31,161 nt of DNA from a virus. Below the pieces are notes generated by a model that made no database searches, was not told the DNA's origin, and was given only the letters and a program-made list of their open reading frames with translations. The stretch lies in IMG/VR virus record IMGVR_UViG_3300017971_000622. One strand, 5' to 3'. Of the stretch, positions 10,841-11,173 are shown piece after piece. The stretch's first letter is position 1; every line of letters starts with the position of its first letter. Position numbers and translations under genes: made by a program.

Positions 10841-11173
10841 TCAAATCCGAAAATTGAGTGACAATCGGATGTCAATATCAGGCGAGACTGGTCTGTTATC
10901 TAGCTCGTTGTCGGCTACGGGCCTTGGCAAGAAGTTTCGGCTGTCTTTCGACCCCTTACTCACCCACTTAACTAGGCCTTCCGCTGTACCACCGATTCCG
11001 TGTCAACGTCTTATTGCCTTTTGCCTGCCTTACTGGACTTCTGGGCTTGCGCCCGGCCAACCCTACTCAATTCGGGGTGCTCGGCAGGGGAAGCTCACCG
11101 TGTTTTACGCATCTAGTCTCCCCCCAGCAACGCTTTCGTTGTTCTCACATCCGATTGTCAAAGAACCAACACA
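10841..11173 (-). ncRNA. ~300-nt highly structured RNA or 5' leader, unclassified
   Basis: Lies between the motif promoter (11174..11208) and the RBS at ~10820. It is closed by a perfect 13-bp helix: 10860..10872 (gacaatcggatgt) pairs with 11147..11159 (acatccgattgtc). Nested helices include GAGACT/AGTCTC and CCTGCC/GGCAGG. GNRA-capped hairpins include GGGC-GCAA-GCCC and GTC-GAAA-GAC. Confidence 0.5.

Follow-up and report, generated by a model that had tools for sequence, protein, structure and literature searches.

Here we describe R, our name for a structured RNA in IMG/VR virus record IMGVR_UViG_3300017971_000622. The stretch of DNA that was analysed, hereafter the window, is 31,161 nt long, is taken to be part of a large uncultivated phage and supplies all positions given below. 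R covers about 310 nt (10853..11168) from its predicted start to the end of its closing helix, both ends being putative, and since every gene of the window lies on the minus strand it is read on that strand. It is a conserved, structured and strand-specific RNA, and it is a new RNA family without an Rfam counterpart. Sequence comparison indicates that its closing helix is the same stem as that of the 16S ribosomal RNA (rRNA) precursor of Acidobacteriota, sequence included, with a core of 270 nt in place of the 16S rRNA. With somewhat better than even confidence we read R as the gene of a stable RNA that stands alone and follows the plan of a miniature rRNA operon, its transcription assisted by Nus/boxA and its closing helix acting as a processing stem of the rRNA type.

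boxA and the closing helix

R opens at its 5' end with a boxA element, GUUCUUUGACA (11156..11166, minus strand). The element reads GTTCTTTGACA in R and agrees at 10 of 11 positions with the published gamma-proteobacterial consensus GYTCTTTAANA; the C at position 4, described as critical (10.1101/091223), is present. The corresponding region of homologue L007 (L numbers designate loci throughout) reads GCTCTTTGACA. The pattern GYTCTTTRANA occurs three times in the window against 0.27 occurrences expected, and none of 100 shuffles attained three. All three motifs are on the sense strand upstream of non-coding RNAs, namely R, a second conserved RNA termed X, and the region leading to the transfer-messenger RNA (tmRNA) gene; the leaders behind P1-type promoters of protein genes in the window measure about 12 nt and lack boxA. 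R and X both begin with GUUCUUUGA, and boxA precedes X, R and tmRNA in related loci as well.

The 19-mer GTTCTTTGAMARTCRGRTG was scanned against bacterial genomes, one per species, and gave at least 124 matches in at least 120 loci. Among the matches listed, 8 of 124 sit 111-307 nt upstream of the 16S 5' end and are leaders of rRNA operons (rrn), seven from Acidobacteriota (including Acidipila, Terriglobia and 'Acidiferrales') and one from Elusimicrobiota; the window R is identical to the seven Acidobacteriota leaders over 19 of 19 nt, GTTCTTTGACAATCGGATG. The upstream pre-16S stem arm is the same as the 5' arm of R in L145, L147, L161, L166, L190, L191 and L201. In the four Acidobacteriota operons whose contig extends past the 16S gene (L145, L147, L166, L190), the complementary sequence UCAUCCG-(2-5 nt)-GUCAAAG follows 110-130 nt past the 16S 3' end, and boxA plus the next 10 nt are therefore the upstream arm of the pre-16S processing stem. 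The 3' arm of R (10859..10872) corresponds to this UCAUCCG..GUCAAAG arm. Beyond boxA and the stem arm, the core of R shares no similarity with 16S rRNA, nor with the leader or trailer of rrn operons. The Acidobacteriota match may be taken as a lead for the host of the phage clade, not as proof of it. As a separate observation, metagenome-assembled genomes of Syntrophaceae and others (L092, L089, L110) carry the boxA-like 19-mer in surroundings that recur, TAACCCATCTTCCGCAG...GTTCTTTGAAAATCRGATGTAGTGGAGACC, ahead of a protein gene that is conserved too, where it may belong to a boxA-regulated messenger RNA (mRNA) of a mobile element.

The helix that closes R, helix P1, is a perfect inverted repeat of 14 bp in which 11147-11160 pairs with 10859-10872. 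Its 5' arm is UGACAAUCGGAUGU (11147..11160, minus strand; ACATCCGATTGTCA on the plus strand), which overlaps the 3' half of boxA, and its 3' arm is ACAUCCGAUUGUCA (10859..10872, minus strand; TGACAATCGGATGT on the plus strand). The original prediction, made from the letters of the window, had rightly called this helix perfect and had put it at 13 bp instead of 14. It had also placed the 3' strand about 35 nt from the ribosome-binding site (RBS) of the next gene, which agrees with the position of AAGGAGG at 10818-10824, about 35 nt beyond the end of the arm at 10859. No other perfect inverted repeat of at least 13 bp with a loop of 50-500 nt occurs in the 31-kb window; dinucleotide shuffles hold a mean of 0.25 such repeats per window, with at least one in 17.5% of shuffles, and taken alone the 14-bp repeat is only suggestive. 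That the repeat is real follows from its conservation and covariation in homologues. The single-sequence minimum free energy of R is unexceptional (z = -0.93), and support for the fold comes from comparative data, not from folding energy.

R directly follows a P1-type phage promoter, TTCCGGATTT-N12-TTGCAATAG (11174..11203, minus strand; families D7/D8), a motif that the original prediction had correctly noticed. The window has six copies of it, each on the minus strand, and the five others stand a few nucleotides before start codons. Transcription is predicted to start about 6-8 nt past the motif, near 11167, and TGCAATAGTG upstream of R is kept in L043/L203, L005, L030 and L009. The earlier statement that the interval has no open reading frame (ORF) holds for the sense strand, which has stops in all three frames in six of six homologues; it does not hold for the antisense strand, where an ORF of 157 aa (10812-11285, plus strand) is open in the window, although it is broken in three of six homologues and not conserved. 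After R comes a small gene of 135 aa (10406-10813, minus strand), whose homologues carry Pfam LPD25. Between the two lies a decayed remnant of a P1-like promoter, UUUUCGGAUUUGAAUGACAAUGA (10831..10853, minus strand), recognised by comparison with L004 and L005, where intact promoters stand immediately ahead of LPD25-like genes. This remnant suggests that a cassette of promoter and R may have been inserted upstream of the LPD25-like gene.

A conserved, strand-specific RNA fold

About 90 loci were gathered by way of the LPD25-like protein and of a Ro60 alignment, and nhmmer was then used for R. Identical copies of R occur in three independent assemblies (L001-L003), and R is therefore not an assembly artefact. 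Five further distinct homologues were found by nhmmer on metagenomic phage contigs, giving six distinct sequences of 295-335 nt with the window included. They comprise group A (window, L043/L203 and L007) and group B (L005, L030 and L009), and the 5' ~90 nt and 3' ~60 nt of R align across all six. Pattern scans of IMG/VR with core motifs of group A and group B returned the L007 contig only, or nothing, and a scan with the 19-mer returned four matches, all unrelated to R. No Rfam match was obtained inside R at the gathering threshold or at E <= 10 or E <= 1, the window and four related loci giving tRNA and tmRNA only.

For the three sequences of group B, RNAalifold predicts 97 pairs, and compensatory changes are seen in 22. 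In the five-sequence consensus of 77 pairs, pairing reaches 83% of cells, where column shuffles reach 74%, and double changes occur in 27 pairs, where shuffles give 12.6. None of 500 shuffles attains the observed value for pairing or for double changes, and sliding the partners by 1-3 columns approximately halves the pairing. Helix P1 has five pairs with compensatory changes among five sequences, exemplified by GACAGUCAGGUGAG / CUCACCUGACUGU in L009 and UUGAAAAUCAGAUGAG / CUCAUCUGAUUUCAA in L005, and such changes are present in internal helices as well. Together with the strand asymmetry described below and the outcome of the Rfam search that the original prediction had proposed, this covariation bears out its view of a structured RNA that matches no known class.

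The given strand folds better than its reverse complement, with alifold energies of -103.0 against -79.4 kcal/mol for group B and -38.9 against -27.8 kcal/mol for five sequences. Many pairs of R are G-U, and both facts argue against a palindrome that acts at the level of DNA. We therefore regard as extremely improbable the view that the fold is incidental and that the arms are terminal inverted repeats like those of miniature inverted-repeat transposable elements, a recombination site or a protein-binding palindrome. The patchy distribution of R as an accessory cassette and the decayed promoter copy at its flank would suit such an element, but R is present in a single copy in the window, the sequence there reads without target-site duplication or flanking direct repeat, the internal helices covary and the arms are accounted for by the rRNA-type stem.

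Inside R, from 5' to 3' on the minus strand, the first arm of P1 is directly followed by a GNRA-like hairpin, AACG-AAAG-CGUU (11129..11140), which appears as C-GNAA-G in L005, L009 and L030. The helix GGGGGGAG / CUUCCCC (11087..11125), predicted by RNAalifold around the conserved block GGGGARAC..GRCGCRC, comes next, and its columns 45-50/76-81 have 83% of cells paired in five sequences. The hairpin GCCGAGCACCCC..GGGUUGGC (11056..11085) contains a CCGAG block that is kept in six of six homologues. Two GNRA hairpins, GGGC-GCAA-GCCC (11043..11054; GGC-GAAA-GCC in L043) and GGUC-GAAA-GAC (10943..10953), account for the minimum of two that had been predicted. The block AAGUCCAGUAAGGC (11027..11040) resembles the CR-I region of RNase P RNA and is kept in group A (window, L043 and L007) and absent from group B. 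Towards the 3' end, the conserved block ACGAGCUAGAUAA (10896..10908), which reads ACGRGCCUGAGAA in other homologues, is a candidate for a long-range pairing of 4 bp with the block after GGGGARAC; the pairs are CUAG:CUAG in the window, CAGG:CCUG in L043 and L030, CGGG:CCUG in L009 and GAGG:CCUC in L007, with one mismatch in L005. An alternative partner for this pairing lies at columns 169-175.

Several known classes were considered and rejected. The resemblance to RNase P RNA, which the original prediction had itself found unconvincing, fails because the CR-I-like AAGUCCAGU has no consistent P4 partner, belongs to group A only and is thus missing from half of the family, stands in the wrong helix order and is accompanied by no Rfam match at E <= 10; the complementary ACUGGCU is found only in L043, and the window and L007 have CCAGUCU and CCAGCUC. 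Signal recognition particle RNA (no domain IV motif), 6S RNA (R is multi-branched, not rod-shaped) and retron msr/msd (no reverse transcriptase seen nearby) were set aside on a reading of sequence and architecture with no dedicated test. Canonical Y RNA is ruled out by size and motif. GOLLD and ROOL are large phage-carried RNAs of unknown function that lie next to tRNA and tmRNA genes. R resembles them as a large multi-helix phage RNA with GNRA loops and A-rich junctions situated by tRNA and tmRNA genes, but it matches no Rfam model, measures about 300 nt against 580-800 nt, is linked to Ro60 and has the rRNA-type leader and stem.

Proposed expression and processing of R

What follows R differs from locus to locus. 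Its direct 3' neighbour is the LPD25-like gene in the window and L009, tmRNA in L007, and a ~95-nt RNA termed W in L203, where Ro60 comes next, and in L030, where an unrelated ORF comes next. In L005, R is followed by W, a hairpin with a CGAA motif, a conserved element termed Z and then Ro60, and the LPD25-like gene lies upstream of R. LPD25-like genes without R occur in nine distinct loci, including L004, where the gene stands directly behind the P1 promoter. The sequence beyond helix P1 is not conserved, no terminator-like site was found in 10841-11173 or just downstream, and no expression platform (terminator/antiterminator or RBS sequestration) was found after R. R is independent of its downstream gene. 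The suggestion in the original prediction that it might be a riboswitch or cis-regulator of the small gene at 10406-10813 was rejected on these grounds, namely the varying neighbours, the LPD25-like genes that occur alone and the lack of an expression platform. A tie of R to the LPD25-like gene was likewise ruled out by the nine loci, and a tie to a vault-type gene upstream was rejected because that gene occurs only in the window type and in L009/L010 and R also occurs without it. R is missing from many close loci that keep the order ACP, X, tRNA-Met, Ro60 (among them L011, L022/L204, L040, L058, L205, L213 and L214), and it is therefore an accessory cassette.

In general terms too, we hold it to be very improbable that R is a riboswitch or tRNA-sensing leader through which ligand-dependent folding sets the downstream gene. 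Its position between promoter and RBS in the window, the A-rich junctions and GNRA loops typical of large aptamers and the stretch GGUGGUAC, which in the window reads like a T-box core, all fit such a leader; against this, the downstream gene is not constant, there is neither a terminator/antiterminator nor a platform that pairs with the RBS, a P1 of 14-20 bp is far too stable for switching and no riboswitch or T-box in Rfam matches at E <= 10. GGUGGUAC is missing from group B and L007, and T-box RNA was rejected because the stretch occurs only in the window (GGAUGGUAC in L043), with no terminator and no Rfam match. The boxA and the rRNA-type stem explain the long and stable closing helix better than a riboswitch P1 does.

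For the rrn operons of E. coli, a layout has been described in which loops form with the help of Nus factors and SuhB and the stem is cut by RNase III (PMC4807359). SuhB, NusA and NusG are reported to keep boxA-bound NusB/NusE on the polymerase during elongation, and looping of the nascent RNA is said to aid correct long-range folding (PMC4807359; PMC6614801). CRISPR arrays are one example of the long untranslated transcripts that boxA also shields from Rho (PMC7665894). By analogy, the layout of R would run from the phage P1-type promoter through boxA at the transcript 5' end, the upstream helix arm and the core of about 270 nt to the downstream arm. NusB/NusE would bind boxA and, with NusA, NusG and SuhB, remain on RNA polymerase, and the untranslated R transcript would be spared Rho termination by the Nus-modified polymerase. 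The polymerase would keep the 5' arm close until it has transcribed the 3' arm, which would let the closing helix form co-transcriptionally and then serve as a processing and end-protecting stem, for which RNase III is the expected enzyme. Cleavage would free R from a longer transcript running into the LPD25-like gene, the small RNAs and Ro60, into which the termination-resistant polymerase would continue. Nus binding, RNase III cleavage and the existence of R as a discrete stable RNA are thus steps that we infer from the analogy.

R shares with rrn leaders a boxA that agrees with the consensus at 10 of 11 positions and the identity over 19 of 19 nt with Acidobacteriota leaders among the matches listed, an upstream arm that abuts or overlaps boxA, a second arm past an enclosed structured RNA, and an untranslated transcript downstream of a strong promoter. 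It differs in that the enclosed RNA of about 270 nt is unlike 16S, that it is phage-encoded and has a phage-specific promoter, that no boxB or boxC is recognisable and boxA lies at about +3 of the transcript, and that the stem is shorter, with two of the three bacterial stem segments. We see only a slim chance that these likenesses make R a decoy, a mimic of the host pre-16S leader and stem that titrates or redirects NusB/E, SuhB, RNase III or early assembly factors, or that feeds Ro60 quality control. Bacterial Ro60 (D. radiodurans Rsr) does act on rRNA precursors and in rRNA decay, which would suit a decoy, as would the sequence and stem shared with host-type rrn leaders, but in front of X and tmRNA the same boxA clearly serves as a signal for expression; a conserved and unrelated core of 270 nt would not be needed, and this core has no likeness to 16S, its leader or its trailer.

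boxA is also known from CRISPR arrays and lambda nut, where, as in R, it opens a long untranslated transcript or a read-through phage operon (PMC7665894; 10.1101/091223). There it is a bare linear boxA, whereas in R it forms part of the helix that closes a folded RNA, and these phages place boxA before at least three kinds of RNA gene (R, X and tmRNA). The comparison nevertheless raises the alternative that R is purely a leader acting in cis, its boxA, perhaps aided by the fold, serving antitermination of the downstream operon, from the LPD25-like gene and the small RNAs to Ro60 and further, in the manner of lambda nut or HK022 put, and its folded core merely insulating or stabilising the mRNA 5' end without a function in trans. 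boxA is a known cis-acting antitermination signal, R always comes directly after the promoter with no terminator behind it, and five of the six loci have a transcription unit that runs on to Ro60. For that purpose, however, an 11-nt boxA would suffice, and X and tmRNA of these phages carry one but lack the R core; the compensatory changes in many helices of a conserved core of about 270 nt imply that the fold itself is under selection; and loci that lack R still express Ro60 from the same layout, as we read them. We rate such a role as rather unlikely.

Several points weigh against R as a stand-alone stable-RNA gene. The purely cis role of boxA and structure just discussed keeps its minor share of probability, and because no terminator follows R, it is physically also the 5' leader of a polycistronic transcript. 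We infer the transcript ends and the stability of the RNA no less than Nus binding and RNase III cleavage. Classic RNase III substrates are longer than helix P1, which measures 14 bp in the window, about 20 bp in group B and only 8 bp, with a bulge, in L007. boxA starts within about 3 nt of the putative first transcribed nucleotide, a shorter distance than rRNA leaders show. With only six members the family is small, and covariation was tested on a structure that came from these very sequences. The central third of R does not align between groups A and B, so that the full consensus structure is provisional. The link to Ro60 is one of neighbourhood, and the loci were mostly gathered through Ro60, an ascertainment bias.

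The Ro60-centred RNA island

In minus-strand order around R, the window holds an ACP-like gene, a gene with major-vault-protein domains (Vault_3, MVP_shoulder and Band_7/SPFH; 11717-14496), X as a conserved non-coding RNA of about 280 nt (11385-11662) directly before tRNA-Met(CAT) (11287-11363), R with its promoter, the LPD25-like gene, a hairpin with a CGAA motif (10322-10397), the conserved element Z (10205-10302) and the TROVE/Ro60 gene (8366-10141), all on the minus strand. A strong terminator (11219-11254) lies between tRNA-Met and the P1 promoter, and the tmRNA gene is at 15201-15578. NAMPT, NUDIX and PAPS-reductase-like genes are also present in the window, consistent with a large phage. 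BLAST against GenBank phages found no close cultured relative, the best Ro60 identity being below 30%, and the window and L005 versions of R with the 6-kb neighbourhood gave tRNA-Met matches only; IMG/VR holds the contig of one relative. The vault-type gene is split into two overlapping ORFs in the window and L001 and is a single ORF in L002 (926 aa) and L009 (923 aa), and its presence beside a TROVE gene and tRNA/Y-like RNAs recalls the eukaryotic vault. Elsewhere in the window (345-7571, minus strand), about 15 small paralogous genes form an array in which a common 61-nt repeat encodes the N-termini (family D1).

Y RNAs have a long stem formed from their 5' and 3' ends, of which mainly the 5' strand is conserved, and a second protein-binding module (10.1101/312249); their size is 80-130 nt (PMC4201824). 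R could be seen as a giant Y-RNA-like partner of the phage Ro60, with P1 as the Ro60-binding module and the 270-nt core as an oversized effector-binding module through which Ro60 would be tethered to a further factor or substrate, but we judge this quite unlikely. A Ro60/TROVE gene does lie 0.1-2.6 kb downstream in six of six R loci (the sampling of loci being anchored on Ro60), R shares with Y RNA and YrlA the modular layout of an end-formed terminal stem with conserved 5' strand and a second module, and it is accessory, as extra Y RNAs are. With a length of about 300 nt (295-335 nt), however, R is three times larger than Y RNAs, it has no tRNA-like module (ARAGORN, Rfam) and no Rfam Y_RNA match, and the conservation of the P1 5' strand is already accounted for by boxA and the rRNA-type stem. 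The Ro60-binding motif GNCGAAN0-1G, which in animals reads GGUCCGA and belongs to the 5' strand of the terminal stem, is not conserved, since CGAAAG or CGAAG occurs in three of the six and the others have CGUAAG, CGGAAG and CAGAAG. The CGAA-type motif lies outside the P1 strand; the stretch after P1 is GNRA-loop-like and reads ACGAAAG in the window and L030, ACGAAG in L007, ACGUAAG in L005, ACGGAAG in L009 and CAGAAG in L043. Better Y-like candidates in the island are X, the CGAA hairpin at 10322-10397 and W. RNAduplex comparison of R with tRNA-Met, tmRNA, X and Y/Z gave only meaningless duplexes over the whole length.

X has its own sigma70-like promoter, the boxA GUUCUUUGAAA and a conserved block CUUCAG-N4-GGGUUACUUCA, with a covarying terminal stem (GAUAC/GUAUC, CAGACUC/GAGUCUG) and no Rfam match. 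At least 12 distinct homologues occur in Ro60 loci, some of them followed by a short version of 100-140 nt. X is a core element of the island and is suspected to be the Y-RNA analogue of these phages. The CGAA hairpin is of Y-RNA size (window 10322-10397, minus strand; L005 3633-3710) and reads GGGCACCUGUUUA-CGAA-UG...GGUAAACAGGUGCC, with the CGAA motif right behind the 5' stem strand and a stem that covaries between the window and L005. W, about 95 nt long, occurs directly after R in L203 (1160-1255), L005 (3545-3640) and L030 (617-700) and is absent from the window; it has a covarying 7-bp closing stem, GGCUGRC/GUCAGCC, and contains GGCGAAC. Z (GGGUGGC...GCAAGAC...GUUGAUACUGG) lies upstream of Ro60 with or without R, in the window, L005, L011, L205 and L213, and L030 and L009 have a Z-like stretch at the Z position. 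Nearly all Ro60 loci keep a hairpin and, behind it, ACGCUUCA (window 10163-10187, minus strand) immediately ahead of the Ro60 start codon. Because ACGCUUCA recurs in the 5' strand of X, it may be a site of Ro60 autoregulation.

Upstream of tmRNA, about 770 nt of the window (15579-16384, minus strand) lie between a P1 promoter (16355-16384) and the gene. They contain a boxA (16096-16106) followed by UUUGGAUGC, which resembles the stem arm of R, and a boxA-like GUUCUUUUGAAA at approximately 16240-16251; the region may hold a further structured RNA or a pre-tmRNA processing stem. In many related phage loci boxA stands within about 30 nt upstream of tmRNA (L206 3373-3383, L040 193-203, L065 2093-2103, L035 603-613, L204 953-963 and L019 3236-3246), and these phages appear to use rRNA-type antitermination for all of their stable RNA genes. 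The 3' end of tmRNA in L007 (1711-2250) and that of tRNA-Met in L206 (4141-4945) are each duplicated around an inserted ORF or block, which looks like a homing-endonuclease or intron-like insertion in an RNA gene.

Our best guess for the core of R, held tentatively and at clearly less than even probability, is that it is a trans-acting RNA of a ribonucleoprotein (RNP) within the Ro60-centred RNA island. Carried further, R might be a phage 'pseudo-rRNA', a catalytic or scaffold RNA made, folded and excised by the transcription machinery of host ribosome biogenesis, with boxA/Nus/SuhB and RNase III, and built into a virus-encoded Ro60 particle for RNA repair or quality control, which we consider unlikely; if it were true, the particle would combine R with the phage Ro60, Y-like RNAs, tRNA-Met and tmRNA, and in some genomes with the vault-type shell protein.

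R adds a large structured RNA family without an Rfam counterpart, known to date from large uncultivated phages alone, and it lies outside the Y RNA, RNase P, T-box, riboswitch and Rfam large ornate RNA families. By analogy it would be rRNA-precursor-like in expression and processing and is not an rRNA. The phage uses host signals for rRNA expression and processing, boxA and the pre-16S stem, for its own stable RNAs; outside rRNA, boxA is to our knowledge known from lambda nut, a few mRNAs and CRISPR arrays, and not from a phage RNA gene that has it in its closing helix. Host prediction for the phage clade may profit from the 19 nt shared with Acidobacteriota rrn leaders. The dense island of X, tRNA-Met, R, W, Y, Z and tmRNA around a phage Ro60, joined in some genomes by a vault-type gene, is a promising locus for learning the role of Ro60-type RNPs in viruses.

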